Origin: an uncultured Chloroflexia bacterium | GTDB taxonomy: Bacteria; Chloroflexota; Limnocylindria; Limnocylindrales; CSP1-4 | Reading direction: 5' to 3' | Assembly: GCA_963708015.1 (NCBI GenBank) | Contig: OY970185.1 | Location: 211,984-275,983 of the forward strand | DNA length: 64,000 bases | Part shown: positions 3,109-61,101 of the stretch, piece after piece | How the letters are laid out: each line of letters opens with the position of its first letter | Position numbering within the stretch: the first letter of the stretch is position 1 | Position numbers and translations under genes: made by a program | The notes under the pieces: model-generated | The model's database searches: none | What the model saw: only the letters and a program-made list of their open reading frames with translations | What the model was told of the DNA's origin: nothing

Positions 3109-3156
3109 TTGGGCAGGTGCTCCTGTGGTCGGCTCGGGGCCATCGGTGGGTGATGC

Positions 3157-5079: not shown

Positions 5080-5191
5080 GCGAAAGCGACCGGATCAGCG
5101 GTCCCCAGGTCCGGGGCGGCGGCCGCTCGTCACGGACCCGCGGTTCATGACGGTGGCCCGGCTCGGGTCCTGGGCTGCGGCCCTGCGGCGG

Positions 5192-19121: not shown

Positions 19122-21989
<2,868 letters not shown>

Positions 21990-36408: not shown

Positions 36409-37731
36409 CTACCGAGCGATCGAGCCCGAGATCGACGCGCCCCAGCCGGCCCCCAGCCGCAGGACCTGGTGCTCCCGGACGATGTGGCCGCTCGAGCTGT
36501 TGACCGTGTCGACCACCAGGCGAGAACGGTCGTAGACAAGATCCCAGTCGATCGCCCGGTGAGCCGTCACCACCACGATCACGTCCGCCCAGTCGACGAT
36601 CGCTGCCAGGTCGACGCTCCGGTGGGTCTCGCCGTCGGCATCCCGGAAGGTGGCGACATGGGGATCGTGGTAGCGGACGTCACCGCCGCGGGCAGTCAGC
36701 CCCGAGATCACATCGCGCGCCGGCGAGTTCCGCGCATCCTGGACATTCGCCTTGAAGGCGACCCCGAGGATGCCCACCTTTGCGCCTTTCAGGGCCAGGC
36801 TGTGCTCGTTGAGCGCCTCGGCCACCAGGTCGACCACGTGGCGGGGCATGGCGAAGTTGATGTCGGCGGCCGTCTCGATGAACCGATCGATGAAGTCGAA
36901 CTCGCGGGCGCGCCACGAGAGGTAATACGGGTCGACCGGGATGCAGTGGCCGCCAACGCCCGGACCCGGGCTGAAGCGCATGAACCCGAATGGCTTGGTG
37001 GCAGCCGCGTCAATGACCTCCCAGACGTCGAGGCCCATCCGCTCGCAGAGCAGTGCAAGCTGGTTGACAAAGGCGATGTTGATGTTCCGAAAGACGTTCT
37101 CGAGGAGCTTGGCCAACTCGGCCGCGTCGGGCGACGACAGCTCCAGGACCTGGTCGTTGATCTCCGAGAGCAGGACGGCGGCGCGGCGGGTGGCAGCCGG
37201 CGTCGTCGCGCCGACCAGGCGAGGGACGATCCGGGAGGCACTGGCCGGGTCGCCCGGATTGACTCGCTCGGGGGCATAGCCCAGGTCGAAGTCGCGGCCG
37301 GCGACCAGCCCGCCCATCTCGATTGCCTCGCGGAAGGCCCCCGTCGTGGTGCCGGGGAACGTCGTCGACTGGAGGACGACGAGCTGGCCCGGGCGGAGGT
37401 GCTCGCGGATGAAGGAGGCGGCCGTGAGCACGGGTCCAAGGTCGGGATCCTTGGTCGTCGTGATCGGTGTCGGGACACACACGAAGATCGCGTCCGCCTT
37501 GGCCAGGCTTGCCGAGTCGGGCCCGACAACGGACAGGCCGGAATCCAGGGCCGCCCCGAGGCGTTCGTCGGAGATGTCGTCGATCGGCGACGTTCGCGCG
37601 TTCAACTCGGCCACGCGCCCGGCGAAGGCGTCGATCCCCTCGACCTGGTGGCCAGCTTCGACGAACGAGATGGCGAGGGGCAGGCCGGTGTAGCCGAGGC
37701 CGATCACGGCGAGACGAGTGTCGGTTGTCAT
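36409..37731 (-). CDS. nucleotide-sugar dehydrogenase (UDP-glucose/GDP-mannose dehydrogenase family; UDP-N-acetyl-hexosamine dehydrogenase-like)
   Basis: The N-terminal Rossmann motif is LAVIGLGYTGLPLA. The catalytic Cys region is FSPGPGVGGHCIPVDPYYL, and a C-terminal UDP-binding domain follows. The start was set at Met32 (MTTDTRLAVIG). Confidence 0.85.
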   Translation of the reverse strand: MTTDTRLAVIGLGYTGLPLAISFVEAGHQVEGIDAFAGRVAELNARTSPIDDISDERLGAALDSGLSVVGPDSASLAKADAIFVCVPTPITTTKDPDLGPVLTAASFIREHLRPGQLVVLQSTTFPGTTTGAFREAIEMGGLVAGRDFDLGYAPERVNPGDPASASRIVPRLVGATTPAATRRAAVLLSEINDQVLELSSPDAAELAKLLENVFRNINIAFVNQLALLCERMGLDVWEVIDAAATKPFGFMRFSPGPGVGGHCIPVDPYYLSWRAREFDFIDRFIETAADINFAMPRHVVDLVAEALNEHSLALKGAKVGILGVAFKANVQDARNSPARDVISGLTARGGDVRYHDPHVATFRDADGETHRSVDLAAIVDWADVIVVVTAHRAIDWDLVYDRSRLVVDTVNSSSGHIVREHQVLRLGAGWGASISGSIAR

Positions 37732-37792
37732 GCTTGGAAGCCTAGCGGATGGCCCGACGGCGCCGGGAACGGCACCGCCCACCGGACTTCGC

Positions 37793-39898
37793 TCAGCCGC
37801 CGGCGCCAATGACCGCGGAGGCACCGACCGAGGTGAGCTCGGCCTGGACCGCCATGACCGGGACTCCAGCCTCGGCCGTCAGCACGGCGGGCTCGGGCAT
37901 CCGGGCGACCTCGTCCTGCCTCGCCGGGCCGATGCTCAGGCCACGGGCGTAGTCGAGCAGGACGCCGCGCAGGAGGTCCTCGTTGTTGCCGCTCGCCAGC
38001 GCCATCAGCCCAAGCACATCCTCGCGGATGTCCCTGGGCGCCCGGTCGGCCGCGGCCCGCAGGACCTTCGGGTTTTCGGTCGGCTCGACCGTCTCCGAGG
38101 CGTAGAACAGCTCTTCGTGGAGCTTCTCCCCGGGCCGCAGTCCGACGATCTCGAAGGGCTGGCTGTCGGGGTCGCGGCCGGCCAGCCGGACGAGGTCGCG
38201 GGCCAGGTCCATGATCTTGACCGGCTCGCCCATGTCCAGCACGAACAGGTCGCCCGACCGGGCCAGGGAGGCGGCGTCCAGGATCAGCCAGGCGGCCTCG
38301 GGAATCGTCATGAAGAAGCGGGTCATCGCCGGGTCGGTGATCGTGAGCGGCTCGCCGTTCTCGAGCTGCTCCTGGAAGATCGGCACGACGCTGCCGTTCG
38401 AGCCCAGGACGTTGCCAAAGCGGACCGACACGTAGGGTCGCCCGGTTCGCTCGGCCGTATCGGCGACGAGCATCTCGGCGACTCGCTTGCTGGCGCCCAT
38501 GACGCTCGACGGGCGGACGGCCTTGTCGGTAGAGACGAGCACGAAGCGCTCGACCCCGGCGGCCTCGGCCGCGTCGAGGACCGCCTGGGTCCCGGCCACG
38601 TTGACGTACATCGCGTCGGACGGATGGGCCTCCATCATCGGCACGTGCTTGTAGGCGGCGGCATGGAAGATCACCCTGGGCGCCTCGACCGAGATCAGCT
38701 TGTCCATGGCCGCCCGGTTGGTGATGTTGGCCAGGGCCGTGTGGACGTCGACCCGGGTATGGCCGTGGACGTCGCGCAGCTCGAGCTCGCGCTCGAGCAG
38801 GTAGAGCGGGCTTTCGGCCCGGTCGACCAGGACCAGCCGGCGAGGACCGAGCGAGAAGACCTGCCGGGCAAGCTCCGAGCCGATCGAGCCGGCCGCACCG
38901 GTGATCAGGACGGTTTGATCCCGGATGATCTCGGCGACGCCTGCGACATGATCCTTGACGATCGGACGGCGGAGCAGGTCCTCGACCCGGATCCGGCGCA
39001 TCCGGTTGGCGGCGGTCGTGCCATCGAGCAGGTCGGTCACGGGCGGGACGATCCGCACGTCGAGGCCGAGGGCCATCGCCGATTCGACGACCGGGCGGAC
39101 CGCCGCTCCGGGCGCGCTCGGCATCGTGATCAGGAGCGTTCGGGCTCCGGTCAGCTCGGAGGCCCGGGTCAGCTGGTCACTGGCCCCGAACACGCGCAGG
39201 CCCGCCACGTACTTGCCTCGGAGGGCCGGATCGTCATCGAGGAAGCCGACCGGGACCACGCCGGTGCCGGGATTGCGCTCGGCCGAGCGGGCCATCAGCA
39301 CCCCCGTCCGGCCGGCGCCGTAAAGCAGCGTCAGGTGCTGGCCGGTGGTGGCTCCAGCGGGTGTCTCCGGCGACCAGTCGAAGGCAGCCCGGATCGTGAA
39401 CCGGACCCCGCCCAGGATCGCGATCGCGAGGAGCATCTCGAGCGGCCAGAACGAGCGGGGGAAGGCCCCCGGCATGTCCGCCGGCGCGATCGCCACCAGG
39501 CTGTAGAAGAGGATCATGCAGGCGATCGTGCCGATGACCATCGCGGCTGCGATCTGGAAGACATCCGGGATGCTGGCGAAGCGCCAGCCGCGGCTGTACA
39601 GGCCGAGCTGGCTGTTGCAGGCGGTTCGGACGGCCATCAGCAGGAGGATCGTGGGCAGGACCGGGCCGATCAGGGCCGGTCCGGGCAGCACGTCGTAGCG
39701 CAGGCCGAGGGCGAGGCAGGCAGCAGCAAAGATCCCGACCAGGTCGATGAGCAGCAGGTGGCGGGCCTGGAGCCGGCGGGCCACACGGGCGATCACGGCA
39801 CCACCCGTCCTGGACGGTGCTGACCGGTAATCGGATCCTGGCGATCGGTGTGTGACATCGGCGAGGCGAACCGAAAGGCGAGACAGGCGGCGAGACAC
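37793..39898 (-). CDS. polysaccharide biosynthesis protein CapD/WbpM/PglF-like (membrane-bound nucleotide-sugar 4,6-dehydratase)
   Basis: Four N-terminal TM helices are followed by two Rossmann domains (LITGAAGSIGSEL; the YKHV..E region). The true start is probably the GTG near 39796 (VIARVARRLQARHLLLIDLVG). Confidence 0.8.
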   Translation of the reverse strand: MSRRLSRLSVRLADVTHRSPGSDYRSAPSRTGGAVIARVARRLQARHLLLIDLVGIFAAACLALGLRYDVLPGPALIGPVLPTILLLMAVRTACNSQLGLYSRGWRFASIPDVFQIAAAMVIGTIACMILFYSLVAIAPADMPGAFPRSFWPLEMLLAIAILGGVRFTIRAAFDWSPETPAGATTGQHLTLLYGAGRTGVLMARSAERNPGTGVVPVGFLDDDPALRGKYVAGLRVFGASDQLTRASELTGARTLLITMPSAPGAAVRPVVESAMALGLDVRIVPPVTDLLDGTTAANRMRRIRVEDLLRRPIVKDHVAGVAEIIRDQTVLITGAAGSIGSELARQVFSLGPRRLVLVDRAESPLYLLERELELRDVHGHTRVDVHTALANITNRAAMDKLISVEAPRVIFHAAAYKHVPMMEAHPSDAMYVNVAGTQAVLDAAEAAGVERFVLVSTDKAVRPSSVMGASKRVAEMLVADTAERTGRPYVSVRFGNVLGSNGSVVPIFQEQLENGEPLTITDPAMTRFFMTIPEAAWLILDAASLARSGDLFVLDMGEPVKIMDLARDLVRLAGRDPDSQPFEIVGLRPGEKLHEELFYASETVEPTENPKVLRAAADRAPRDIREDVLGLMALASGNNEDLLRGVLLDYARGLSIGPARQDEVARMPEPAVLTAEAGVPVMAVQAELTSVGASAVIGAGG

Positions 39899-40175: not shown

Positions 40176-40850
40176 ATGACCGATCGAGCCAGGCTTTCGC
40201 TCGTCCATCGGGTCCGGCCGCTCGCAGCCGGTGAACCTCGTGTCGAGCCACGTCCGCTCCTGATCCTGCTCCACGGCGTGGGCAGCAATGAGCTGGCGAT
40301 GGCCGCGGTCGCCCAAGCCTTCGACCCACGCTTCCAGGTCGTCAGCGTTCGGTCGCCGATCGAGCTCGGGCCGTTCGCCTTCGGCTGGTTCCCGATCGCC
40401 CGGACCCCCGGCAGCCCGGCAGTGAGCGACGCCGATGTCGAGTCGGCCATGTCCCGGCTGTCGGCCTTCATCGATGAAGCGCTGGCGGCCTACGCGGGCG
40501 ATCCGGACCGGATCTTCCTGGCCGGCTTCAGCCAGGGCGGAATCGTGGCGGTCGGGTACCTCCTGGCCCACCCCGGGCAGGTCGCCGGGGCTGTCTCGAT
40601 GAGCGGCTGGCTGCCGCCGGAGGTCGTCCCGGCCGAGGTTGACGCGGACGCGCTGGCCGGCCGAGCCGTCCTCGTCCTCCACGGGATCGATGACCAGACG
40701 ATCGGGATCGACGCCGCTCGCGCCGAGCGGGCGGCCCTGTCAGGGTTCCCGGTCCGGCTCGACTACATCGAGCTCGCGATCGGCCACACGACGACCGAGG
40801 AGAGCGTGGCGATCGTCGCCGGCTGGCTGGCCGACCGGCTCAACGACTGA
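40176..40850 (+). CDS. alpha/beta hydrolase (phospholipase/carboxylesterase family)
   Basis: 224 aa; HGVGSNE, the nucleophile elbow GFSQGG, and a C-terminal His. Confidence 0.75.
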   Translation: MTDRARLSLVHRVRPLAAGEPRVEPRPLLILLHGVGSNELAMAAVAQAFDPRFQVVSVRSPIELGPFAFGWFPIARTPGSPAVSDADVESAMSRLSAFIDEALAAYAGDPDRIFLAGFSQGGIVAVGYLLAHPGQVAGAVSMSGWLPPEVVPAEVDADALAGRAVLVLHGIDDQTIGIDAARAERAALSGFPVRLDYIELAIGHTTTEESVAIVAGWLADRLND

Positions 40851-40871: not shown

Positions 40872-42662
40872 TCATTCGGCGCTCGCCAGGAGCCGGACGA
40901 GCTCTCGCTCGAGCAGCGCCCGCCCGGCGCGCTGCGCCTCGATCGGTCGGAGCGTGTGGTCGACACCGGGCAGCTCCTCGAAGACAAGGTTCGGCCACCG
41001 ATCGAGGCCGGCCACGATCCCGGCCGCCGCCAGCTCGTCCAGGACCGGCTCCTCGCCCGAGAAGGCGAGCACCACCCGGGTGCCGTTGCGGCGCAGGGCG
41101 TCGAGCAGGCCCTCGGCCGGATCCGCGGGCCGACTTCCGCCGATCGACCGGATCCGCTGTGGCGCGTTGGCCGCCCCCCGGGCCGCCGTTCGGGCCATCG
41201 CCCGTGAGACCTCGACCATCCGCGACGGCGGCACCTCGCCGCGCAGGATGCGCCGCCACAAGCCGGCGTCGCCCAGGCGCTGGATCTTGCGGGCCTCCCT
41301 CCGGGCGAGCAGGTCGTCGTCCCAGACGATCGCCCGCGGGTTGATCGCGATCACCTCGACGATCCGGGGTTCACGAGCGGCTACGTTGACCGCCCAGTAG
41401 GCGCCCGAGCACAGGCCGACCAGCACGAACCTGGGCCCCAGGCCGCGCTCGACCAGGAAATCCAGGGCCGCCACCATCTGGGACGCGAAGATGTCCTTGT
41501 AGAACTTGCCGACCTCGCCCCGGCGGACCGGGTCGCCGTCGGCATCGCCGATGCCGTTCAGGTCAATCCGAAGCGTCGGAATACCCTGACCACTCCACTG
41601 CCGGGCCGCCTCGACCCACATCCGGTTCGGGCCGATCCGACGGACCGCCCCGGCATTCAGGAAGATCGCGCACAGGTCGCCCCGAGCGCCGTCGAGTGCT
41701 TCGGCCAGGACCCCGAACGGGCGGCTGTCCGGGTGGCCGATCCGGACGGGCGTCTCCCGAATCCGGGCATCGGCGCTGTCCAGGACCGCCGTCTCGGTCG
41801 CGCCCGGCTGTTCGAGCGCGGCCCGCTCGGTCCGCCCTGCGCCGGGCCGGCCGGTCCCCGAGTCCAGCCATGCCTCCACCTCGGCGAACACCCCGGTGGG
41901 CGGGGCGTCGTGCTCGGGGTGGAACACCATGTCGGCCCAGCCGCGGCCCGGGGCAACCGTCACCTCGACCTCGAGCGACCGCAGGTGGGCCTCGGTCGCC
42001 TGGTCATGGCCCATGCCGTCGCGATCCAGGAGAAGGGCTCGGCGGAGCCGGCCGAGGTCCATCCGAGCCGGAGCAAGCTCGTCCAGGTCCTTCATCGAAC
42101 CGGCCGACAGGACGAACCCGCTCACCTCGAGGTCGCCCGAGGGCGGGACCGAGGAGCCACCATCCCGGGCTGGATCCAGCCGGGTGCCCTGGAGGGCGGC
42201 GAAGGCGCGCTGCTCGCGGACGAAGGCCCGCCCGCTGGCGGGTACCGCCCACAGGACGAGATCATCGACGGGCGCCCCGCCCGCGATCGCAGCCGTCCCA
42301 AGCAGCCCGCCAAGGCCGAGCCCGATCAGGGCGACGGGCGGGGCATCCGGCCCGCCGGCGAGCCAGCCCGCGGCCGTGCTGATCGCCCCGAGCCAGGACT
42401 CGACCAGGCCCGGATCGGCCGATGACCCAGCGCTGTCCCCGGTGCCCGGCAGATCGATCCGGAGCGTGGGATGACCGTGCTCGGCGAGCGACTCGGCCCA
42501 GGCCTTGCGACTCCGATACGAGGCGATGTCGTCCCAGCCCCACGGTCCGCAGATCAGGACCGCCGCCGATCGAGGAGCATCGACCCAAGGCTCGTGAAAG
42601 ATCCCGAAGAGCGGTCCGCGGCGGGTCGCGAGATAGATCGGCCGGCCGGCGACGCCGGTCAC
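40872..42662 (-). CDS. tandem double alpha/beta-hydrolase-domain protein (two exosortase-system-type 'hydrolase 2'/'hydrolase 1'-like halves)
   Basis: 596 aa with two separate nucleophile elbows, GLGLGG in the first half and GLCSGA in the second. Each half resembles the small alpha/beta hydrolases found in EPS loci. Confidence 0.6.
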   Translation of the reverse strand: MTGVAGRPIYLATRRGPLFGIFHEPWVDAPRSAAVLICGPWGWDDIASYRSRKAWAESLAEHGHPTLRIDLPGTGDSAGSSADPGLVESWLGAISTAAGWLAGGPDAPPVALIGLGLGGLLGTAAIAGGAPVDDLVLWAVPASGRAFVREQRAFAALQGTRLDPARDGGSSVPPSGDLEVSGFVLSAGSMKDLDELAPARMDLGRLRRALLLDRDGMGHDQATEAHLRSLEVEVTVAPGRGWADMVFHPEHDAPPTGVFAEVEAWLDSGTGRPGAGRTERAALEQPGATETAVLDSADARIRETPVRIGHPDSRPFGVLAEALDGARGDLCAIFLNAGAVRRIGPNRMWVEAARQWSGQGIPTLRIDLNGIGDADGDPVRRGEVGKFYKDIFASQMVAALDFLVERGLGPRFVLVGLCSGAYWAVNVAAREPRIVEVIAINPRAIVWDDDLLARREARKIQRLGDAGLWRRILRGEVPPSRMVEVSRAMARTAARGAANAPQRIRSIGGSRPADPAEGLLDALRRNGTRVVLAFSGEEPVLDELAAAGIVAGLDRWPNLVFEELPGVDHTLRPIEAQRAGRALLERELVRLLASAE

Positions 42663-42721
42663 GCGTCACGAGCGGGTCTCCGGGGTCCTGATCGCCACCT
42701 GGCCCTTCAGGTTGAGGGCCG

Positions 42722-45184
42722 TCAGCCAGCCGTCAGGGCCTGCGCCACCGCCAGAGCCATCCGGTCCGGTTGGCCGGAGCGGGATGTTCCGGCGGCCACC
42801 CGGCTCGATCGAGAAGGCATCGTCGCCCGGGACGAAGCCCGCCAGGTGGATCCGGACGCCATAGGCCAGGCGGCGAGCTGGCGATCTTCAGGACCGGGGC
42901 TCCGTCGGGGCCGCGATCGGTCCTGACCGAGAGCCCCAGCCGATCGCACCGGCTCGGCGGCGAGCGGCCGCCCGGCCGGGAAGAGGAACGCCTGCGACAG
43001 CAGCCTGGGCGGGCCATCGCCGACCGGCTGTTCGAGGCTGGCGACGATCACGTCCTGGGCCGGCGGCCCGAACCGGTAGGCCCACGAGGCATCGACGAAG
43101 CCGCCGACGATCGCCTCGACGTCGTGCTCGGCCGACCCATGGGCGGGCAGCTCGAGGGCAACCTCGCCGGCTCCGACCGGCAGCTCCTGGTCGCTGTACA
43201 GGCCGATCCGGAGACGAGCGGCGAGCGGCTGCGGCCCGTCGTTGGCGACATGCGCGACGACGCCGCCGGTCCGTTCGTCGGTCAGCCAGACGGCGCGTCG
43301 GGGCCAGGATCCGGCGCAGGTGGTGGTAGGCGGTCTTCGGTCGCCCGCGGTGATCGACGACGCCCCAGCCGGCACCCGGGACGAGGTCGCGCAGCCACAG
43401 GATCAGGCCGCCGCCCGACGGCGAGCCGGCCCGGCGCCACTCGCCGATAGACGAGCTCCATGACCTCGCCGGTGACCGCCCGGGAGAGCTCGAGGTAGCG
43501 GGCCGGGTCGTCCCGCCGGAGGACCCCCGGATCGAGTCCGAAGACGAGCTCGAGGTAGTGGTCGCGCATGTCGTCGAAGTCCCAGCCGGCGCCCGCGTCG
43601 CGGGCCACCCCGGCCTTCCAGCGAGGATGGTGGACGAACACGTCGTGGGGCGCTCCGACGGCCAGCTCGTCCACGACCGCCTCGTCGGGGACGTTGGCGA
43701 ACGCGAGGCACTCGGCGGCGAACAGGACGCCGCTCGTCCGGGCGTCGGACAGCGGGCGCCCGGTAGCCACCGACCCCGTAGTAGTTCGTCACGCCCCGGT
43801 TCGGCCGCATCGGCAGGTCGCCCCCGAAGGGCGCCGACGGCACGTAGATCGCGTCGAGGCCGGCGGCCTCGACCAGGCCGGGCACGATCGGCGTCGAAGA
43901 ACGGGATCCGGGCAAGGGCCGGATCGAGGCCGAGCATCGCGACCTGCTGCTCGACCTCGCTGTTGCCGCACAGGACGGCCAGGCTGGGCCGTCCGCCGAT
44001 CTCGCTCCAGCGAGCTGGGCGACCTCCCCTGCGGCCGCCCGGCTGAAGGGCTCGTCCGCGAACGGGTAGTCCAGGCTCATGAACATGAGGTCCTGCCAGA
44101 CCAGGACCCCCAGCTCGTCGCACAGGTCGTGGAAGGCGGCCTGCTCGTAGGCTCCGAAGCCGGGCAGGCGGAGCATGTTCATGCCGGCATCTCGAGCCGT
44201 CTCGATGGCAGCCCGCAGCTCATCGTCCGAGGCGGCCAGGCGGACGCTGTCGAGCGGCGTCCAGAGCGCCCCCCGGCTGAAGACCGCCTGCCCATTGACG
44301 TGGACGAACAGGCCGTCCCGGCTCGATGTCATGGCCGGCGGCGGGCCTGGGGCCAGGCTCCGGAAGCCGACCCGGCCGGCATCGATCGTGATCGGATCGG
44401 GGCCCGGGCCGACGATCAGGCGGACCCGATAGAGGGCGGGGTCGCCGTGGGTGTGCGGCCACCAGCGGGCGACGCCGACGATCCTGAGCTCGGAGCTGGC
44501 CACCAGGGCCCGATCGTCGGCCGCTGACCGACAGTGGCCCTCGATGGACTCCGGTCGGGCCCTCGAGCTCCAGCTCGACCGGCCCGTCGAGGGCGGCGGC
44601 CAGGCCCCGCAGGCGAACGTTCAGGGCGAGAATCGCCGTCGTCTCCATCCAGGCGCGGCGTCAGCTGGATGGACTCGATCGACGAGCCTCGTGCGTCGCT
44701 CGAGCCAGACGCCGCGCCACGGCCCGACCGCCGGCGGGCCCGGGGCGAAGCCGGGAATCCGCCCGATCAGCATCGAGCGGAACCAGCGCAGGTTGTTGTC
44801 GGCGACGAGGCGGGTGCGCCAGCGCGCCCGGGGCGATCGCTGGCGGTCGAGCTCGGGGGCCAGCGGCCCGAAGCGGATCGCCAGCTCGTTGTGGGCGGCC
44901 AGGAGGCTGCCGACATCGATCAGGTGGCGGGCGAACATCGATTCGCCGGCCAGGACTGGTTCGCCGTTCAGGAAGACCTCGGCGAGGGTGGCCAGCCCGT
45001 CGAGGCCGAGGACGACCTCCTCGCCCGGTCCGGGCGGGGTCGCCTCGAAGGTGGTCCTGAACCACCAGTCCTGGGCGTCCAGGTCGCCGATCGGCAGGCC
45101 GGCGTCGCGCAGTGCGCCGGCGACCGTGCCCGGCACCGCGGCCGGGATCCAGGCGAGCTCCGTCGAGGCCGTCGGCCGGCTCAA
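42722..45184 (-). pseudogene. glycoside hydrolase family 2 (beta-mannosidase / exo-glucosaminidase-like) gene broken into at least four reading-frame segments
   Basis: The N-terminal sugar-binding domain is in ORF 44621..45184 (WIPAAVPGTVAGALRDAG...DWWFRTTFEA...LDGLATLAEVFLNGE). Core pieces lie in ORFs 43403..44503, 42888..44123 (LAVLCGNSEVEQQVAMLG) and 43282..43770 ([35 protein letters not shown]). The C-terminal Ig-like domain is in 42722..43375. Confidence 0.6.
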
Positions 45185-45266
45185 CGCTGACCCGGGTCGG
45201 CCTGGGCCGCCTGCCAGCCCGTCGAGAGGAAGGTCCGCTCGTGCCCGGACACCCGGGCTCGGTCGG

Positions 45267-46265
45267 TCAGGGCCGGGTCCATCGGACTAGGCCAGGACGT
45301 CGCTGAGCGATCCCATCGCTTCGGTCCAGGCCTCGCTCAGGCCGCGCATCGGCTCGGTCGGATCGAACGTCCGGCGTCGGGCAAGCTTGAAGCCGAGCAT
45401 CTTGCAGCCTTCGACGATCCGGGCCATGGCCGCCGCCGCCGGATCGGCCCGCTCGCCCGAGGAGCCACTCGACGTGGGAGGCGAGGAGCTCGAAGCCGGC
45501 CCCGGCCATCCGGAACGTGGCGAAGGTGAAGGCGTGATAGCGGGCGGCGTCGCCCTCGAGGAGGGCTGGCAGCTCGGCCGAGAGGCGGGCCCCGAACTCG
45601 TCGAACGGGTTGCCGGGCACGATCCGTCCGAGGTGGCCGCGGAGGATCTCGCGGGCGGCGGCGCGCAGCTCCTCGCCCTCGAGACGCGGCCCGGCGTCGA
45701 ACCGGATCAGCTCGGTGTACGGCGGCAGGACGTCGCCCGACCAGCCGTCGCCGGTCCGAAATGCGCCCCGGAAGTCGGCGCCCTCGAGGCTCATACATCG
45801 AGGCGTTGTGGAAGTAGCTGGAAGCGCTCGCCGGCCAGGTCGATCCCCTCGGCGATCACCCCGGTCTTGACGTGGGCCTGGCCGTAGCTCGTCGCGGCGG
45901 TGTCGGGCAGGTACCAGCGCGTCGAGCTCGATCGTCATCGTCCGACCGAGGGCCAGGACCTCGGCGATCTGGTGCGGAATCGAGCGGTACGGCTGGATCT
46001 CGTGGATGTCCATCCCGTACAGGACCTCGAGGTCGACGGCGAGCGGCTTGAAGAACGTCCACTGGTCGTTCTCGAAGCCCATCCGGACGAACGAGCCGAA
46101 CGAGGCGACGGGCTCATCTCCGCGAGCGTGGAGCAGCTCGATCACGATGTCGGTGAAGCAGTTCGTCTCGATGTAGCTTCGCTCGCCGGTGTGCAGGGGA
46201 CTGGGCTGGTAGGTCGCCGGATCGAGACCGAACAGGCTGACCATGCCACCCGGGGCGAGGCTCAT
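45267..46265 (-). pseudogene. DUF1839 family protein gene with frameshifts
   Basis: [52 protein letters not shown]...IELDALVP becomes R/G/D junk. Protein-like sequence resumes later in the same ORF (VLPPYTELIRFDAGP...AFTFATFRMAGAGFELLASHVEWLLG) and then degenerates again. Confidence 0.5.
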
Positions 46266-46403
46266 GACCAGAGCTCCGCGCGCACCTCGGCCGGCCAGGC
46301 GTCGACGGCCAGGCCATGGGCCCGGAAGAGGGCCAGGGTGATCCGCTCCAGGCCGAACGCGACGCATCCGGTGTGGGCGACCCGCCCGCCTTCGAGGCCG
46401 ATC

Positions 46404-47196
46404 TCATAGATCTGGCGTGAAGTGGTCCTGGTGGTAGTTGAAGGAGGCGATCGCCGTCGGCTCCGGTCCGCCGACCATCGCCACGAGCTCGAACTTCAGC
46501 TCCTGGGCCCGCTGGTTCGCGGCCAGCATCCGGCCGCCCCGGCCGAAGAACGGGTCGGAGGCAACCTCCGAGGTCGCGGCGAGGCCGACGCCGCTCGAAC
46601 AGGCCGACGGTCCGCCCCAGCCAGTCGTCCCGGAACGCCCCGACATCGTCGGGATCGGCGATCCGGACGAACTCGAGCATGTGGAAGATCTGCATCCGGG
46701 CAGGATCGCCCGACGCCTCGTTCCGGAAGACCCACGAGCTGCCCGTGTCGACCGTCACCCCGGCGACGGGCAGCGGGCCTCGCCGGGCCACTTCCGGGTA
46801 GACCGGGTAGCAGGCGGCCGGCAGGACGACCAGGTCGGTCATCGTCTGGAACCGGCTCCAGTCCTCGTGGCGCGCGGCGAGCTGCCTCCTGCTCCAGTGG
46901 CCTCGGCGTCCGAGCCGTCGAACGAGAAGACGCTCCCGGCCAGGTGGGGGAACGACGCGAGGTAGCCGTTCTTCTCGATCTGGTAGCGCGGCAGGAGCGG
47001 CGGGAAGCGCATCGCCTCGGCGTGATCCGGAGCGGCGGCCCGCATGACCGCGTCGGTGAAGGCCTCGCGAACCCGCACGAAGTCGACGCCCTGGCCGTAG
47101 ACGCCCGGAACGTCGGTCTGGACGAGCAGGCCCCTGTCCAGGAGCTCGGCGCAGGAAGGCGGCCTGCTCGGCGGTGGCGGCGCGGTACGCCGCCAT
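46404..47196 (-). pseudogene. amino acid--[acyl-carrier-protein] ligase (truncated seryl-tRNA-synthetase-like class II core) gene split over at least three frames
   Basis: The segments are MAAYRAATAEQAAFL... (47196 downward); ORF 46839..47078 (RFPPLLPRYQIEKNGYLASFPHLAGSVFSF); ORF 46114..47340 middle ([58 protein letters not shown]); and ORF 46404..46646 ([25 protein letters not shown]...SFNYHQDHF). Confidence 0.55.
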
Positions 47197-48374
47197 TAGA
47201 CGTCCTTGGCGATGAGCAGCAGGCTGGCGTTCGTCTGGTGGATCCGCTCGTTGGCGACCATCAGGCAGGCCGACATCGTGTCGCGCAGGTGCCGTCCGAC
47301 GCTGAACGGCGTGTCGTTCTTGTAGCCGACGATGCCGCACACGTTCATCGCTCCCTGGCAGACCCGCGGGGCCTGCTCGGACGCGGCGATCTTCAGGTTG
47401 TTGAAGCGCAGGATCATGGCCATCGTCGACAGCCGCTCGCGGTCGCCCGGCCGAGGCATCGACTGAACTCGCGCAGGCCGGTGTTGACCTCCGCGCGCAG
47501 GAGGGACAGCTCGCTCATCAGCTGGGACAGCCGGACGGCGGTCGGCGGGAGCTGGTCCGGCCGGGCCTTGGCCGAGGCCTTCACGAAGGCGCGGGCGCGA
47601 TCGAACGCGTCGGTCGCGATGCCCAGCCAGAGGTGCGACCAGAGGATGTGCGAGATCGGCACCATCGACTCGGTGCCGACGGTCGAGAACGGGATCGGCA
47701 GGACCTGCTCGGCGGGAACTCGGCCCGCACGGTGTAGCCGGGCGAGCAGGTGCCGCGCATGCCCATCGGGTCCCAGCGTGCCCTTCTGCTCGAGCGTGAA
47801 CTGCTCGCGATGGGTGAGGACGGCGACCTGGTCGCCGGGCTCGGCGTCCGGGCTGCGGCGGAGGGTGGTCAGGAGGTCGTCGGCATAGGCGCCGTAGGAG
47901 ACCGTCGGCGCCTGCTTCTCGAACGTGGCCAGGCCGCCGTCGACCGGGGGTGACCGCGGCGATCGACTTGCCGAGGTCGCCGCCCGTCCCGATCTCGGAG
48001 GTCACCGAAGCGACGAGCCGCTGATCGCGGGCGACGTCGCGCAGGTAGGCCTCGAACCAGGGCGAGCCATTCAGCGTGGCGAGCGATCGCGGCGATCTGG
48101 ATCTGGTGCATCGCGAAGACCATCGCGCTGGCCCCGCAGCGGCGGCCGAGCTCGAAGCAGGCCGCGGCGACGGTCTCGAACGAGACGCCGCCGCCGTCGT
48201 ACTCCTCGGGGATCAGCGACGACAGGGCCCGCTGCGGCGCGCAGGGCGGTCGATCGTCTCGATCGGGAAGCGGGCGTTGCGGTCGACATCGTCGGCATTC
48301 GGCGCGGCGACCTCGTCGGCGATTCGCCGGATCGTCGCGAGGAAGGCCTGGTCGCGATCGACGGCGACGGTCAT
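47196..48374 (-). pseudogene. acyl-CoA dehydrogenase family gene split over at least three frames
   Basis: The N-terminal fragment is ORF 47869..48468 (YDGGGVSFETVAAACFELGRRCGASAMVFAMHQ). The middle is ORF 47414..47665. The C-terminal fragment is ORF 47196..48005 (MAMILRFNNLKIAASEQAPRVCQGAMNVCGIVGYKNDTPFSVGRHLRDTMSACLMVANERI). The start ATGA-couples to the ACP gene. Confidence 0.55.
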
Positions 48375-48627
48375 GCCGCGACCTCGCAGCTGGCGTCAAG
48401 GCGGCCGCTGATCGCAGAGACGCTCTGGAAGACGCTCCGCTTGAGCATCGCGTCGGGGAACTCGACATCGAACTCGGTCTCCAGGCCGAGCATCAGGTTC
48501 ACGCTGGCATGCGATGTCATGCCCGCCTGGAACAGGTCGGCGTCGTCGCTGAGGGTCGAGATATCGACCGGGCAGATGGCCGTGCTCCCGGATCACCTGG
48601 CGAATCCGGTCCGCCAGGTCTGCGCCA
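48371..48627 (-). pseudogene. acyl carrier protein (phosphopantetheine-binding) gene with a one-base frameshift
   Basis: I translated it myself: VNSGADLADRIRQVIREHGHLP | (shift of +1 at cccggtcg) VDISTLSDDADLFQAGMTSHASVNLMLGLETEFDVEFPDAMLKRSVFQSVSAISGRLDASCEVAA. The region after the shift carries the ACP helix II Ser. Confidence 0.5.
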
Positions 48628-48810
48628 CTATTCACTGGGTTCGTTCCTCGTTTTGCCAGCCGGTTCGTCTCCGCAGCATACGATAGTCATGTGGCCTGAC
48701 CAGCCAACTGGGGCACTCAAGGTTGCCCCGGCGCACCATCGAGACGGCCGGACCGCCCGGACGGGTGCTACGTTCAGGGGGTCGCTCGTGGGGGTGGATT
48801 GGAGTCAGGC

Positions 48811-49887
48811 GTGCCGGGCACGGTCAGCGTGATCATTCCGACCTTCAATCGGGCCAGGTTCCTGGGCGAGGCGCTGGACAGCGTCCTGGGGCAAACCTAC
48901 TCCGACCTCGAAGTCATCGTGGTCGACGACGGCTCCAGCGACGGTACCGCCGAGCTGATGGCGACCCGGACCCGGGACGATGCCAGGGTCCGCTACGTGC
49001 GTCAGGCCAATCGCGGGGCGTCGGCGGCCCGGAACGCGGGCCTCGACGCCGCGACGGGTGACTTCATCGCCTTCCTCGACTCGGACGACGCCTGGCAGCC
49101 GTGGCACCTCGAGCTGACCCTGGCATGCCTTGAGCAAGCCCCGGAGGCCGGCCTGATCTGGACCGACATCGAGTTCGTCGATGATGCCGGGGTGCTCGTG
49201 AAATCGTCCGCTCTTGAGCAACTGCTCTCGAATTACCACCGCTTTCCGCTCGAGGAGCTATTCGAGGGTTCGAGCTCGCTGGGAGAGCTCGGCCTGACCG
49301 CGCCGCCAGGGAGCGAGGATGGCCGTCTCTACGTCGGCGACGTCTTTTCGCCGATGATCATGGGCAACCTCGTGCTCGCATCGTCGACGGTGATTCGGCG
49401 CGAGCGACTCGAGCGGGCCGATCGGTTCGACGAGACCCTGCCGATGGGCGAGGACTACGAGTTCTTCCTGCGCGCTTGCCGGGCCGGTCCTGTCGCCTTC
49501 GTGGACGTCGACGATGTCCGGTACCGGGTCGGCAATGCTGACAAGCTGAGCGGGCGGCAGAGCCCGCTTCCCATGGCCAGTTCGTATCTGAAGGTCCTCG
49601 AGGAGACGCTGGCTCGAGATGGCGACCGGATCACGCTGCCGCCCGCGATGGTCTCCGAGGCCCGAGCCTACGCACACCGTTGGGTAGGCAGAATTCAGCT
49701 CCAGAATGGCTCGCGCAGGAGCGCCCGAGCTCACCTGGGGCAGGCGCTCCGGATCGGGCCGTGGCAGCCGACGACGATGGCGCTCTACGGGCTGACGTTC
49801 GTTCCAACCCCGGTTCTTGAAGGCATGCTTCAAGCACGTCACGGCCTGAAGGCGGCGGTCAGACGAAAGTCGGCCCCGTCGGACTGA
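48811..49887 (+). CDS. glycosyltransferase family 2
   Basis: Contains VSVIIPTFNRARFL and the FLDSDD DXD motif. GTG at 48811 (GGAG upstream) or TTG at 48799. Confidence 0.8.
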   Translation: MPGTVSVIIPTFNRARFLGEALDSVLGQTYSDLEVIVVDDGSSDGTAELMATRTRDDARVRYVRQANRGASAARNAGLDAATGDFIAFLDSDDAWQPWHLELTLACLEQAPEAGLIWTDIEFVDDAGVLVKSSALEQLLSNYHRFPLEELFEGSSSLGELGLTAPPGSEDGRLYVGDVFSPMIMGNLVLASSTVIRRERLERADRFDETLPMGEDYEFFLRACRAGPVAFVDVDDVRYRVGNADKLSGRQSPLPMASSYLKVLEETLARDGDRITLPPAMVSEARAYAHRWVGRIQLQNGSRRSARAHLGQALRIGPWQPTTMALYGLTFVPTPVLEGMLQARHGLKAAVRRKSAPSD

Positions 49888-50809
49888 CCCGGTAGGAGTC
49901 GACCGTCGCCGTGATTCCTTCCTCGAACGGCACCCGGACCGCGTAGCCGAGGGCTGTGGTCGCCAAGCTGATGTCCGCCTGCGAGTGAGCGATGTCGGCC
50001 ATCCGGGCCGGCCCGAAGCGCGGCTCGGCCGATCGGCCCGCGGCGTGATTGACGGCGGCTAGGAGGTCAAGGAGCGAATACCGATTGCCACTGGCGATGT
50101 TCACCGTGATCCCGGTTGGGCTCGACTCCCTCGCCGCAAGGAGATTTGCGTCAACGACGTTGTCGACGTGGATGAAGTCACGCGAGATGTCGCCGCTGCC
50201 GTAGATGATCGGCTGCTCGCCCGCCAGGACTGCCGTCGCAAAGCGGGGCACAACCGCCGAGTACTCCTGGCTCGGATCCTGACCAGGCCCAAAGACGTTG
50301 AAATACCGCAGGGCAACTGTTTCGACGCCGTGGAGAGCCCCGAGGGTGTGGAGGTAGTGCTCGGCCGCGACTTTGCTCGCTCCGTATGGCGACACCGGGT
50401 CGGGCCGATCCACTTCGCGGCAGGGGAGCTCCTTCGGAACGCCGTAGACGGACGAAGAGCCGGCCAGGATCACCCGCCGGACTCCTTGTCGCTTGGCGGC
50501 GAGGATCGTCTCAATCGTACCCCCGACGTTGACCGCATTGGTCAGGGCCGGGTGGATCAACGATTGTGCGACCGAGGCCACGGCAGCTTGGTGAAGGATG
50601 ACCTCGCATGAATCGGCCGCCGCGTCCAGGGCGGCTGGATCGACGACGCTGCCGTGAACGATCGAGATCTGGTCAGCGAACGAATGGAGGCGCCACGCGA
50701 ACCCCGAGCTAAAGTCGTCAAGCACCCGCACGTCATCTCCCCGAGCCACAAGGCGGCGAACAAGGTGATGACCAATGAAACCAGCCCCACCGGTGACCAG
50801 AACTCTCAT
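49859..50809 (-). CDS. NAD-dependent epimerase/dehydratase (UDP-hexose / UDP-GlcNAc 4-epimerase-like)
   Basis: Contains MRVLVTGGAGFIGHHL and a YGASK catalytic dyad. Confidence 0.85.
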   Translation of the reverse strand: MRVLVTGGAGFIGHHLVRRLVARGDDVRVLDDFSSGFAWRLHSFADQISIVHGSVVDPAALDAAADSCEVILHQAAVASVAQSLIHPALTNAVNVGGTIETILAAKRQGVRRVILAGSSSVYGVPKELPCREVDRPDPVSPYGASKVAAEHYLHTLGALHGVETVALRYFNVFGPGQDPSQEYSAVVPRFATAVLAGEQPIIYGSGDISRDFIHVDNVVDANLLAARESSPTGITVNIASGNRYSLLDLLAAVNHAAGRSAEPRFGPARMADIAHSQADISLATTALGYAVRVPFEEGITATVDSYRVSPTGPTFV

Positions 50810-50939
50810 CGTTGCTCCAAAGCCCCGGGCGACTCATTCGGGCGGCGCAGGTCAGCCAGGACGGAAGCGCGTCCCGTGACGGTGTCCGATCCTCGTCCGG
50901 CGTTGCCAGGGCGCCCCATCCAACCGAGGCGAAGGCGAG

Positions 50940-52319
50940 TCAAGTCGTGCCGGCCGATCGACGCAAGACCCGCCGGGCCATCCCCAGACTGGTGTCGAAG
51001 GCGAAACGGATATCGGACAGGCGCGGGATCCAGAAGTCCGCCACCGAAGCTTGGTTTAGCCGGGCGGCGACGAAGGACAGAATGATGGCGGACAGCGAGT
51101 ATGAGATCAATGACGCCGCGGCAGCGCCGACGATCCCAAAGGAAGGGATCAGCAACAAGTTGACTGCGATGTTGACGACCAGTGACGCCACGTTGGCGTA
51201 TGACGTCACCGCGGTCATTCCAAGGCCGGCAAGGTAGCTGCTCAGGACTTTGGTCTGGCTCAATGCGACGACACCCGGCAGGATCACGAACAGCGGTGTC
51301 AGCGCCTGCTCGAAGGCCGGCAGCAAGACCCGGATCAGCACGATCGAGAAGGGCACGAGGACGATCGCCATCGCGCCCGTCAGCAGCAGTGTGACCCTGG
51401 CGACCATCGCGACCTGTCGGTCGGCGTCCTCACGGGTCGTCCCGGCCACGTGCGGGAAGAACACCGAGGAGACGGCATTCGGCAGGAAGAACACAAGCTG
51501 GGCAATCGTGACAGCCATGCTGTAGTAGCCGAGCGGTGCTGATGGGTTGGGCAGAATCCAGGCAAGGAGGTACACGTCCACCCGCAAGCTCAGGAAATTC
51601 GTCAGCGTCCCCGGGTAATACGGCAGGCCATAACCGAACAACTCGCGGTACGAAACCCCAGTTCGCCCGGGAACTGATGCACTGACCCGAACGGAGCCCA
51701 GGAAGTAGGCAAGCGTCCCGATGACGTAACACACGAAGAAGGCCCACAACGCACCGACCAGACCGAACCCAAGCACTCCAACCAGCACGATATACATCAC
51801 GACCGAACACGCGCTCTGGCCCAGGTTCACGGCCGAATACCAGCGCACTGACTGTCGTCCAAGCAGCACGCCGGTCGTAAACGTCGCGTTCAGCGCAAGC
51901 GGCAGGACCAACAAGCCCAGGATGATCTCGCTCGGATCGATCGAATCGAGGATCGTCGCCCGCAGGACCGGCAGAAGAGCAATCGTCAGAGCAAACGCCG
52001 GGCCCGCCAGGGCGACGGTCAGCAGGACCGTCTTCGTGTTGATTCCGGTCGTTTGGCCGCGGGCGGCGAAGAATCCAAAGGCCTGAGGTAGTCCGAGCTG
52101 GATGAGGACCATGATCGTGACCGGGAACAAGGTGATCAGGTAGAAGTCGCCCTTGCCCGCCGGGCCGAGGACGCGCGCGAGCAGAAAGCCGACGAGAATG
52201 CCGATCCCGGTTCCCAGGATCGAGGTGACAAAGAGCGTCAGGACCCGGTCGGAGAGGCCCTCGAGGCGGCCGGTCGCGACCGGCTCTTCAGCCCCGTTGG
52301 AAGTTCGCACCGTCGCCAT
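50940..52319 (-). CDS. wzx: oligosaccharide flippase (Wzx; MOP/polysaccharide biosynthesis protein family)
   Basis: 459 aa with about 12-14 TM helices and the typical PST-family profile. Confidence 0.8.
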   Translation of the reverse strand: MATVRTSNGAEEPVATGRLEGLSDRVLTLFVTSILGTGIGILVGFLLARVLGPAGKGDFYLITLFPVTIMVLIQLGLPQAFGFFAARGQTTGINTKTVLLTVALAGPAFALTIALLPVLRATILDSIDPSEIILGLLVLPLALNATFTTGVLLGRQSVRWYSAVNLGQSACSVVMYIVLVGVLGFGLVGALWAFFVCYVIGTLAYFLGSVRVSASVPGRTGVSYRELFGYGLPYYPGTLTNFLSLRVDVYLLAWILPNPSAPLGYYSMAVTIAQLVFFLPNAVSSVFFPHVAGTTREDADRQVAMVARVTLLLTGAMAIVLVPFSIVLIRVLLPAFEQALTPLFVILPGVVALSQTKVLSSYLAGLGMTAVTSYANVASLVVNIAVNLLLIPSFGIVGAAAASLISYSLSAIILSFVAARLNQASVADFWIPRLSDIRFAFDTSLGMARRVLRRSAGTT

Positions 52320-52444
52320 AGGTGGTGATTCTGCGTGTCGCGTTCAGCCGGCCAGTAGGTGGGTCGTCCCTCAGGAGCCCGGCGCCGCCCGAAGCATGGC
52401 GCCTCACGCGCAGCGTTGGGCCTTGTGCATTTGGCTGTAGCCGA

Positions 52445-53317
52445 TCATCTCGAGGCGTCCCGGGGGGGCTGTGTCGACCGAGCTACGAACTCGTCATCTG
52501 GCGTGCCTGCCCTGGTCGTCGTGCCGCGTGCCGCAGGCCAAGTCGGAGGCGGCGATTGCGGGCCGGCGCGTGCACGGCGCCACCAGCCTGGGACGGCGTA
52601 TGGTCCACCTTGCGGGTCCTCGGAGGCTTCGGAATCCTGAGTTGCCACGGTCTGTGAGGGTCCGTCTGGATTGGTCCGGAACCCGCCGCGCCGCTGCCAG
52701 AGATTCTCGCCCAAAAAGGCAATGCTGATCGTCAGGAAGAGGGCGATCGCCCCGCCCAAGGCGACCCTGATCACAAACCCCGGGCCGTCACGAACGGTTG
52801 GGGCTGTCGCAGGATCGACGACGGTGAGGGCGACGAGCTTCGCAACGTTGGCATCGCTCGGATTCGGTGGCGCGTACACCTGAAGGTCGGAGGCGATGGC
52901 GTTTGCGAGAGCGCTCGCCTGGGCGGGATCCCGGTCCGACACACTAATTTCGAGCAGGTTCGTACCCGCAGGAATGTGAGTGGACACGGCTTGGGTGAGG
53001 GCCAGGACGTTGGTGTTCGCGTTGGTCGAGCTGATGACCCGATCGAGGACCGGGGTGGTCGTGGCAAGCTCGGCAAATGTCGGGATCAGCGCCTGGGCGA
53101 CCTCAAGGTCACTCGTGTTGACACCGGTATTGGTGTCGGCCGGGGCAACGAGCAAGGTCACATGGGCCGTATAGGTCGGCGGCGTGATCGCGGCGACACC
53201 AACGGCAATGACCAGGCCAATTACCGTTCCACCCAGGATGAACCAACCCCAGGTGCGCACGATCGACCGGAGTCCCCGGCTAGCCGAAGGTCCGGCGGGA
53301 ATGGATTGGCTGCTCAC
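52445..53317 (-). CDS. Wzz-like polysaccharide chain-length determinant / co-polymerase (no kinase domain)
   Basis: TM1 is WGWFILGGTVIGLVIAVGVAAI. A periplasmic region of about 170 aa follows, then TM2 IRVALGGAIALFLTISIAFLGE. The tail after TM2 is low complexity. Confidence 0.6.
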   Translation of the reverse strand: MSSQSIPAGPSASRGLRSIVRTWGWFILGGTVIGLVIAVGVAAITPPTYTAHVTLLVAPADTNTGVNTSDLEVAQALIPTFAELATTTPVLDRVISSTNANTNVLALTQAVSTHIPAGTNLLEISVSDRDPAQASALANAIASDLQVYAPPNPSDANVAKLVALTVVDPATAPTVRDGPGFVIRVALGGAIALFLTISIAFLGENLWQRRGGFRTNPDGPSQTVATQDSEASEDPQGGPYAVPGWWRRARAGPQSPPPTWPAARGTTTRAGTPDDEFVARSTQPPRDASR

Positions 53318-59290: not shown

Positions 59291-59395
59291 CGTACCTCTC
59301 CCCGATCGGCTGGAATTTCTCCGGCTCGGAGATTTGGAATCCCCAGGGCCAAACGCGGCGCTTGAGCCCAGGGTGATGCTACCGCGACGCCCACA

Positions 59396-61044: not shown

Positions 61045-61101
61045 TCTTCAGGTCCGCCATGCGGCAGACGGTTTGCGCGCAGAAAGCGGCTGGAGGCACT
61101 C

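Follow-up and report, generated by a model that had tools for sequence, protein, structure and literature searches.

We analysed a 64-kb stretch of DNA from an uncultured Chloroflexia bacterium (contig OY970185.1 of assembly GCA_963708015.1, positions 211,984 to 275,983 of the forward strand), hereafter the window, with a focus on a gene cassette that encodes an aa:CP ligase (aa, amino acid; CP, carrier protein) together with its carrier protein. The G+C content of the window is ~70%, and frame analysis based on G+C at third codon positions (GC3) revealed a single long coding run on the minus strand from ~48.6 to 40.9 kb. After frameshift correction, this run resolved into six consecutive minus-strand genes for an acyl carrier protein (ACP), an acyl-CoA dehydrogenase (ACAD)-like flavoprotein, the aa:CP ligase, a DUF1839 protein, a glycoside hydrolase family 2 (GH2) protein and a double alpha/beta hydrolase. 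Translations were stitched across frames by eye before family searches. An intact locus for comparison, L002, comes from the Candidatus Limnocylindrales metagenome-assembled genome (MAG) GCA_038239115.1, which shares ~60–86% amino-acid identity with the window. The six genes are:

48374..48635, minus strand: ACP, a carrier protein of ~86 aa (NF005480, 100.5 bits against a cut-off of 72; Pfam PP-binding, 1.1e-6)
47199..48374, minus strand: ACAD-fold flavoprotein, ~389 aa (Pfam Acyl-CoA_dh_N, 2.9e-15)
46265..47196, minus strand: aa:CP ligase, a truncated homologue of atypical seryl-tRNA synthetases (SerRS), ~309 aa (NF005479, 379.4 bits against a cut-off of 357)
45290..46265, minus strand: DUF1839 protein, 324 aa (PF08893, 5.7e-80)
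42669..45294, minus strand: GH2 beta-mannosidase-like protein, ~870 aa (tblastn and frameshift-aware alignment to the GH2 of L002, 68.5% identity)
40872..42662, minus strand: double alpha/beta hydrolase fusion, an intact open reading frame (ORF) of 596 aa (best NCBIfam matches: N half, hydr2_PEP; C half, hydr1_PEP)

An earlier note on this DNA had named four of these families (SerRS-like aa:CP ligase, ACP, ACAD and DUF1839), had described the cassette as frameshifted and had called its product still unknown. The corrected translations match all four families, frameshift-aware alignment found 32 frameshifts, and a 2022 review agrees that the role is unknown (PMC9437257). The fused hydrolase 1/2-like pair and the divergent third hydrolase of the note correspond to the ORF at 42662..40872 and to an Abhydrolase_2 gene at 40176..40850. 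The hydrolases do not lie directly beside the four genes as had been claimed: the 2.6-kb GH2 gene (45294..42669), which the note did not mention, intervenes. In L002 the locus is intact and collinear (ACP 86 aa, ACAD 389, ligase 309, DUF1839 324, GH2 872, fusion 592). Because stop and start codons of its cassette genes overlap, we read the L002 cassette as one operon, and the six genes of the window are probably one co-translated operon as well.

The ligase aligned to the PDB structures 4h2w/3mey (Bll0957) with an E value of 5.7e-71, and its residues 122–304 alone aligned to the type-2 SerRS 3w3s, at the C-terminal core of the latter (312–505). Judged by these alignments, the protein is a class II atypical-SerRS catalytic core that lacks the tRNA-binding domain. 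In the alignment to 4h2w it keeps the Cys, Glu and Cys of the motifs AAC, M(L/R)E (here MLE) and HTGC, which, with the residue roles reported by Mocibob 2010, we take to be the positions of the Bll0957 zinc ligands. The structures 3mey and 4h2w reportedly go back to Mocibob et al. (2010 and 2013), who described the aa:CP ligases Bll0957 of Bradyrhizobium and Atu2573 of Agrobacterium; the loading of carrier proteins with Gly by Bll0957 and with Ala by Atu2573 is established. In the window, a dedicated carrier protein (NF005480) is encoded in the same operon as the ligase.

The DUF1839 protein scored 269.3 bits against Pfam PF08893 (gathering threshold 22.5) and covered profile positions 2–311 of 313. 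To study its structure, an intact orthologue of 85% identity was modelled with AlphaFold2 (pLDDT 80, pTM 0.80); the model displays a papain-like N domain followed by a long helical C domain. Cys36, invariant among DUF1839 homologues, is located at a helix N-terminus in the model, and several His and Asp residues are invariant too. Foldseek searches with the model matched CcbD, among hits with a probability of 1.0 and a TM score of ~0.6. In the model, DUF1839 thus shares its fold and bipartite architecture with the carrier-protein-dependent papain-like ligases CcbD, CtaG, BtrH and AsbE. DUF1839 has been placed in the papain-like superfamily before, near BtrH_N and DUF6005 (PMC10318531). CcbD takes a carrier-tethered proline onto its catalytic Cys and passes it to the amine of a lincosamide amino sugar (PMC12945683). 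CtaG is a papain-like ligase that acts between two carrier proteins, and its homologues AsbE and BtrH transfer carrier-bound acyl groups onto free amines, the acceptor of BtrH being an aminoglycoside (PMC12865890). The tie to CcbD and CtaG is, as far as the model goes, a resemblance of fold and logic rather than demonstrated membership, and we predict DUF1839 to be a carrier-protein-dependent Cys acyl/amide transferase.

The N domain of the ACAD-like protein reached 57 bits (cut-off 22.9), while its C-terminal domains stayed under their cut-offs at 19.8 and 17. The protein aligned full-length to ACADs of the PDB with E values from 1e-11 to 1e-8, and the PDB matches were equally true ACADs and the ACAD-fold oxygenases KijD3, DnmZ, DszC and MsuC. 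In a manual alignment of RDTMSACLMVANERI with the motif RDAKIxQIYEGTxxI, a Val (in MVA) occupies the canonical position of the YEG Glu; IVD and LCAD carry their catalytic Glu at an alternative position. The apparent replacement of this Glu and a frequent flavin reductase gene in related loci together hint that the carrier-bound residue undergoes oxidase or oxygenase chemistry.

The GH2 orthologue of L002 matched the PDB beta-mannosidases 6bye (4.5e-47) and 2vjx. Its acid/base Glu motif GN(S)E is kept (CGNSEVE aligned with CGNNEVQ), and we infer the nucleophile Glu from a single motif, AAE. In an alignment of 26 homologues of the double hydrolase, the N domain has an invariant Gly at the nucleophile position (G-L-G-L-G) and is therefore probably non-catalytic. 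The C domain carries an invariant G-L-C-x-G elbow (Cys418) and D568-H569 in the same alignment; both elbows sit at a strand-helix turn in the predicted secondary structure. A Cys nucleophile in the C domain in turn suggests a thioester acyl-enzyme. Inspection of the N termini by eye only revealed no evident signal peptide in any of the six cassette proteins.

A five-gene neighbourhood of ACP, ACAD, ligase, DUF1839 and GH2 has been described in Proteobacteria by Ozhelvaci and Steczkiewicz (J Biol Chem 2023, PMC10318531). The window cassette is this known, functionally unsolved neighbourhood in a new phylum and context. In our survey, with one genome per species, 447 DUF1839 loci were collected, of which the best 80 were analysed; all 80 belong to Chloroflexota (Limnocylindria-like) or Actinomycetota (Solirubrobacterales and relatives), and proteobacterial contexts were drawn from PLSDB plasmids only. 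The order ACP-ACAD-ligase-DUF1839-GH2-double hydrolase was found in almost all of these best 80 of 447 loci. The same six genes occur in Proteobacteria, namely on Mycetohabitans rhizoxinica pBRH01, on an Azospirillum oryzae plasmid and on a plasmid of Rhizobium sp. NLR16a, where the cassette comes with two genes for family 4 glycosyltransferases (GT4) and a longer hydrolase. The Mycetohabitans hydrolase aligned at the double-hydrolase position in 60 of the 80 loci, and more than 1,600 homologues of the fusion, ~600 aa in length, were found, many on the same contigs as DUF1839 proteins. Chloroflexota, Actinomycetota and Proteobacteria thus share the order of six genes, and the hydrolases regarded as neighbours by the earlier note belong to the cassette itself.

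A gene for a dedicated phosphopantetheinyl transferase (PPTase) adjoined the ACP gene in 49 of the 80 loci. Accessory genes encoded a flavin reductase (23/80), a methyltransferase (11/80) or an HpaB-type monooxygenase (9/80), and no other broadly conserved genes were found around the cassette in the best 80 of 447. The HpaB-type two-component monooxygenase and the flavin reductase often follow the double hydrolase (for example L084 15415-17429 and L085 16862-18911); the window has neither. A reduced variant, ACP-ACAD-DUF1839-double hydrolase without the SerRS-like ligase and GH2, lies at 1802-17133 of L058, a locus of the Solirubrobacterales MAG CAWDQX010000001.1; L080 and L062 are similar.

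Around the cassette, the window encodes the following functions:

36409..37824, minus strand: NDP-sugar dehydrogenase (TIGR03026, 379 bits against a cut-off of 190)
37793..39898, minus strand: membrane-anchored PglF/PseB/CapD-like UDP-N-acetylhexosamine (HexNAc) 4,6-dehydratase (Polysacc_synt_2, 8.7e-105)
40176..40850, plus strand: Abhydrolase_2 carboxylesterase, divergent (PF02230, 5.2e-23)
48799..49887, plus strand: family 2 glycosyltransferase (GT2), divergent from the ACP gene (PF00535, 2.3e-35)
49859..55955, minus strand: epimerase, Wzx flippase, Wzz, GT4 and Wzy_C polymerase/ligase-like protein (Pfam)
57046..63520, strand not specified: GINT1_N/GH43-like protein, Bac_transf priming transferase, ATP-grasp protein, HAD protein, PseC/LegC-like aminotransferase and GT4 (Pfam, NCBIfam)

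With Polysacc_synt, Wzy_C, Wzz, Bac_transf, GT2 and GT4 all present, the window carries a Wzx/Wzy-dependent polysaccharide locus. The cassette is therefore embedded in a full polysaccharide biosynthesis gene set, just as the earlier note had proposed. The best NCBIfam match of the dehydratase was PseB, at 163 bits and under the cut-off, and the stretch of 33–64 kb of the window yielded no PglD/PseH-type N-acetyltransferase. On the flank of the esterase, dehydratase and sugar dehydrogenase lies also a GH25-fn3 protein. The Abhydrolase_2 esterase is kept in the closest relatives only (L004–L009 and L014–L020) and represents a lineage-specific neighbour.

Several further features of the polysaccharide genes were observed. 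The GINT1_N/GH43-like beta-propeller protein of the window (57046-58617, plus strand) is also encoded no more than 10 kb from the cassette in several loci of Chloroflexota (L007, L014-L016) and in L085. At 59396-62244 (plus strand), genes for the ATP-grasp protein (PRK12767-like, 338 bits, under cut-off), a HAD hydrolase and the PseC/LegC-like aminotransferase form a tight run, which could be a second, independent route that attaches an amino acid or amide to a sugar. An asparagine-synthase-family gene is located between epimerase and GT2 in L002 (1004-2791); it is absent in the window, where both genes abut (49887-49859).

We then asked how frequently such cassettes lie near glycan genes, using the 55 of the best 80 loci that have full 10-kb flanks. 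Counted by homology to a panel, with crude ORF calls and in error-prone MAGs, and hence as lower bounds, at least 34 of the 55 loci had one or more glycan-type genes within 10 kb and at least 20 had three or more. Amino-sugar genes (PglF-type dehydratase or DegT aminotransferase) were found within 10 kb in ~14 of the 55 loci, plus the window itself, often accompanied by a Gfo/Idh oxidoreductase. In L058, a Pfam scan revealed Wzz, Wzy_C, GT4, Bac_transf and Wzx directly upstream of the reduced cassette and Gfo/Idh and DegT downstream; Wzx and Wzy of this locus had escaped the panel count until then. Neighbours typical of exopolysaccharide (EPS) loci were also present in B. gladioli and Rhizobium. 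Linkage to glycan biosynthesis thus recurs, having arisen independently in three phyla, and is not obligatory. Gene neighbourhoods had earlier prompted the suggestion that DUF1839 is connected with glycans (PMC10318531).

Taken together, the six genes may form a thiotemplated module in which an acyl group derived from an amino acid is passed to an amine, probably that of an amino sugar; the cassette is most likely intact in the living organism. We regard this proposal as evenly poised between right and wrong. In a first step, the SerRS-like ligase would activate a small amino acid with ATP and bind it as a thioester to the phosphopantetheine of the ACP, as its family membership and zinc ligands suggest. 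The ACAD-fold flavoprotein would then modify the carrier-bound aminoacyl group. DUF1839, to judge from its fold, could take over the acyl group on Cys36 and hand it to an amine, forming an amide in the manner of CcbD and CtaG. The biosynthesis of butirosin offers an analogy: a carrier-bound amino acid, a flavin enzyme with its reductase, and then transfer to an aminoglycoside amine. The acceptor would probably be a cytoplasmic intermediate, an amino sugar or a glycan. For the window we favour the 4-amino-4,6-dideoxy-HexNAc that its PglF/PseB-like dehydratase and PseC/LegC-like aminotransferase should make; an N-acetyltransferase for this sugar was not found in 33–64 kb. The Cys domain of the double hydrolase might serve as another thioester station, used in proofreading, off-loading or O-acyl transfer.

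The decoration of a glycan with an amino-acid-derived group, as put forward in the earlier note, finds real support in these data: the GH2 gene is conserved, DUF1839 resembles CcbD in fold, cassette variants of another phylum (L058) lie in independent Wzx/Wzy loci, and amino-sugar genes accompany about a quarter of the loci. The embedding in EPS loci, which the note took from the window, is not general.

Several points weigh against the thiotemplated module as outlined. No experiment ties the cassette members to a glycan. The likeness of DUF1839 to CcbD and CtaG is seen in the model at the level of fold only: a profile of 30 DUF1839 sequences, searched against PDB sequences with E values up to 10, gave one chance hit only. 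The active site of DUF1839 is moreover reported as a non-canonical, rearranged C(T/S)H (PMC10318531). The ACAD-like protein, GH2 and double hydrolase are left without an explained role, and since some variants are without ligase or GH2, loader and glycosidase are not obligatory. All six proteins look cytoplasmic, with no transporter conserved alongside the cassette. Zero glycan genes were seen within 10 kb in 21 of the 55 loci; the cassette of L084, for instance, is flanked by Suf, Rieske and ion-channel genes. The acceptor amine could by analogy be a small molecule, as for AsbE and CtaG. The artefactual origin of the frameshifts, discussed below, is likewise drawn from sequence comparison.

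A rival explanation is a self-contained specialised-metabolite pathway, in which the product is a small N-acylated amine or glycoside or a short carrier-built peptide and the acceptor of DUF1839 is not a glycan. On this view, the cassette of some lineages only happens to be placed within a polysaccharide locus. We consider this explanation unlikely, although it is the strongest competitor. The structural relatives CtaG, AsbE, BtrH, CcbD and AziU3 are all natural-product enzymes. The cassette also behaves as a compact mobile unit that turns up in unrelated surroundings, and plasmids or chromids often carry it (65 PLSDB records). The PPTase, flavin reductase, HpaB-type monooxygenase and methyltransferase genes counted above resemble tailoring accessories, and the loci without a nearby glycan gene point in the same direction. 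However, a GH2 gene is conserved inside the operon, and no exporter, regulator or resistance gene is conserved with the cassette among the best 80 of 447 loci. Repeated independent embedding in Wzx/Wzy or glycosyltransferase contexts in three phyla argues against such a pathway as well. If the product were a free glycoside, both explanations would overlap, as BtrH and CcbD themselves acylate amino sugars.

An extended form of the thiotemplated module goes further. The cassette might constitute a widespread N-aminoacylation route for amino sugars of surface polysaccharides, adding glycyl, alanyl or an oxidised derivative, with DUF1839 as amide synthase onto an NDP- or undecaprenyl-diphosphate (Und-PP)-linked 3- or 4-amino sugar and the Cys hydrolase as second thioester station. 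We put this forward tentatively and think it rather doubtful in its full breadth.

To examine the frameshifts, we aligned the six cassette proteins and three flanking proteins of L002 to the window in a frameshift-aware protein-to-DNA alignment. The result for each gene was:

ACP: 1 frameshift (near 48572), 82.6% identity to L002
ACAD: 8 frameshifts, 91.5% identity, the best conserved gene of the locus
Ligase: 5 frameshifts, 86.1% identity
DUF1839: 4 frameshifts, 85.8% identity
GH2: 14 frameshifts, 68.5% identity
Hydrolase fusion, intact: 0 frameshifts, 60.6% identity
Dehydratase, intact: 0 frameshifts, 80.3% identity
Sugar dehydrogenase, intact: 0 frameshifts, 85.7% identity
GH25, intact: 0 frameshifts, 73.8% identity
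42876..48572, no strand given: frameshift patch of 5.7 kb with all 32 events (frame hidden Markov model (HMM) and alignments to L001 and L002)

According to the frame HMM, the stretch from 42946 to 48581 changes its reading frame once per 100–500 nt and is the only part of the 64 kb to do so. Skipping one base cured 29 of the 32 frameshifts, 7.8 kb of flanking genes contained none, and not a single in-frame stop was found across the ~1,970 corrected codons of the five frameshifted genes. These genes are 68.5–91.5% identical to L002, versus 60.6–85.7% for the intact flanking genes. The nearest relative, with ~90% nucleotide identity, is L001 (ENA ERZ25039457 contig_3813, = L006) from a long-contig soil MAG set. 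Compared with L001, the window bears ~45 single-base insertions in the frameshift patch and few elsewhere; inserted bases are mostly G or C and outside homopolymers. Homopolymer or methylation-motif errors were accordingly rejected as the cause. L001 carries +1 insertion patches of its own (3059-3755 and 4924-5991, in GT2 and ACAD/ligase), where the window is intact (GT2) or differently affected. Such patchy +1 errors seem typical of these MAG assemblies, and the gene calls in L001 are fragmented by them.

In light of this comparison, the frameshifts are very probably consensus errors of the assembly and the cassette is functional in the organism, because natural decay would not yield +1 insertions by the dozen and yet spare the genes any stops, deletions or surplus of substitutions. 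That the five genes are instead true pseudogenes, inactivated by an organism that kept the rest of the locus, appears improbable. The events are indeed limited to five consecutive genes of one operon between intact flanking genes, as inactivation would have it. Yet nearly all of them are single-base insertions, correction leaves zero nonsense codons, and the corrected proteins match L002 as well as the intact neighbours do, or better. Decay would have brought substitutions, stops and deletions too, and the assembly of L001 has the same kind of patch in different genes.

Least probable of all, and in our view close to dismissed, is the framing of the earlier note in which exosortase-A-type hydrolases 1 and 2 beside the cassette would load an exosortase-associated exopolysaccharide with an acyl or aminoacyl group. 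The fusion halves do find their best NCBIfam matches in TIGR03101 and TIGR03100, the Wzy-like and priming-transferase proteins weakly match exosortase-associated models, and in exosortase-A TIGRFAM sets, too, two hydrolases go together with an ACP and an adenylating enzyme. But both scores are below half of the curated cut-offs (hydr2_PEP, TIGR03101, 90 versus 202.75; hydr1_PEP, TIGR03100, 78.7 versus 168.45), the fused domains follow the order 2-1, a nucleophile is lacking in the N domain and the C domain uses Cys. Furthermore, none of the ORFs scanned in the 64-kb window matched the exosortase family. The cassette is carried by MAGs of Chloroflexota and Actinomycetota, and the hydrolase accompanies it also where an EPS locus is missing. 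An exosortase association was therefore rejected on the sub-cut-off hydrolase scores and the absence of exosortase from the scanned ORFs. The "exosortase-type" neighbours of the note are a conserved cassette gene, found from Proteobacteria to Chloroflexota, that fails the TIGR03100/03101 cut-offs.

Two further gene groups were observed elsewhere in the window. At 19122-21989 (minus strand), a 955-aa protein fuses a uricase with two repeats to a complete malate synthase. It belongs to a block of purine-degradation genes that also encodes xanthine dehydrogenase subunits, HIUase, OHCU decarboxylase and amidohydrolases, and the fusion would couple urate breakdown to glyoxylate capture. At 16387-18592 (minus strand) lies a MurT/GatD-like pair (a Mur ligase with MurT_C and a CobB/CobQ-type amidotransferase), which points to amidation of peptidoglycan iso-glutamate in this organism.

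The aa:CP ligases are textbook paralogues of aminoacyl-tRNA synthetases whose chemistry is known and whose purpose is not (PMC9437257). If the extended form of the module is true, these enzymes, discovered in 2010, would be assigned a biological role, and it would be explained how aminoacyl substituents reach the amino sugars of O-antigen and EPS. The problem is narrowed to six conserved genes rather than four or five, distributed over three phyla or more. The fold of one member is that of enzymes which pass carrier-bound amino acids to amines, those of amino sugars included, and several lineages house the unit in loci for amino-sugar-containing polysaccharides. Concrete donors, a catalytic cysteine and candidate acceptors can now be named. 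The interest thus lies in a testable function, derived from a fold match and recurrent amino-sugar contexts, more than in this error-ridden copy. As a practical caution, what looks like pseudogenisation here probably stems from an assembly error, of a sort seen again in related long-contig MAGs.

Compared with known systems, the D-alanylation of teichoic acids by DltABCD follows the same logic: a ligase charges a small carrier, and a small amino acid decorates an envelope glycopolymer. However, the fold is unrelated, DltA being an adenylate-forming ANL enzyme, and transfer proceeds outward via the membrane proteins DltB and DltD, whereas the proteins of the window cassette all look cytoplasmic. 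The exosortase-linked families TIGR03100 and TIGR03101 are the top-scoring named families for the fusion halves, which differ from them in being fused, sub-cut-off and exosortase-free in the window.

CcbD/LmbD (PDB 7yn1, 7yn2, 9dkr) are condensation enzymes of lincosamide biosynthesis; CcbD uses a Cys to join a carrier-tethered amino acid to an amino-sugar amine as an amide. Sequence similarity to DUF1839 is not detectable, the CcbD site is Cys-His-Glu as opposed to the reported C(T/S)H of DUF1839, and the donor of CcbD is loaded by the A domain of a non-ribosomal peptide synthetase (NRPS), that of the window by a SerRS-like ligase. CtaG, BtrH and AsbE share with DUF1839 the papain-like N domain, the helical C domain and stand-alone carrier-protein partners. 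Unlike in the window, their loaders are ATP-grasp enzymes or AMP-ligases, and their clusters belong to secondary metabolism, none with GH2 or the double hydrolase.

The Bll0957/Atu2573 systems, too, combine a truncated atypical-SerRS core of ~310 aa with a dedicated small ACP (NF005480) in an operon. Their hosts are proteobacterial, while the window stems from an uncultured Chloroflexota-like organism and sets its ligase inside a Wzx/Wzy polysaccharide cluster. The neighbourhood of Ozhelvaci and Steczkiewicz (PMC10318531) has the same five-gene order and the same papain-like assignment of DUF1839. Beyond these five genes, our analysis adds the double hydrolase as sixth gene, the frequent PPTase, the presence in Chloroflexota and Actinomycetota, and variants without ligase or GH2. 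Within the literature consulted here, the double hydrolase as sixth conserved gene, the ACP-adjacent PPTase and the flavin reductase are new.

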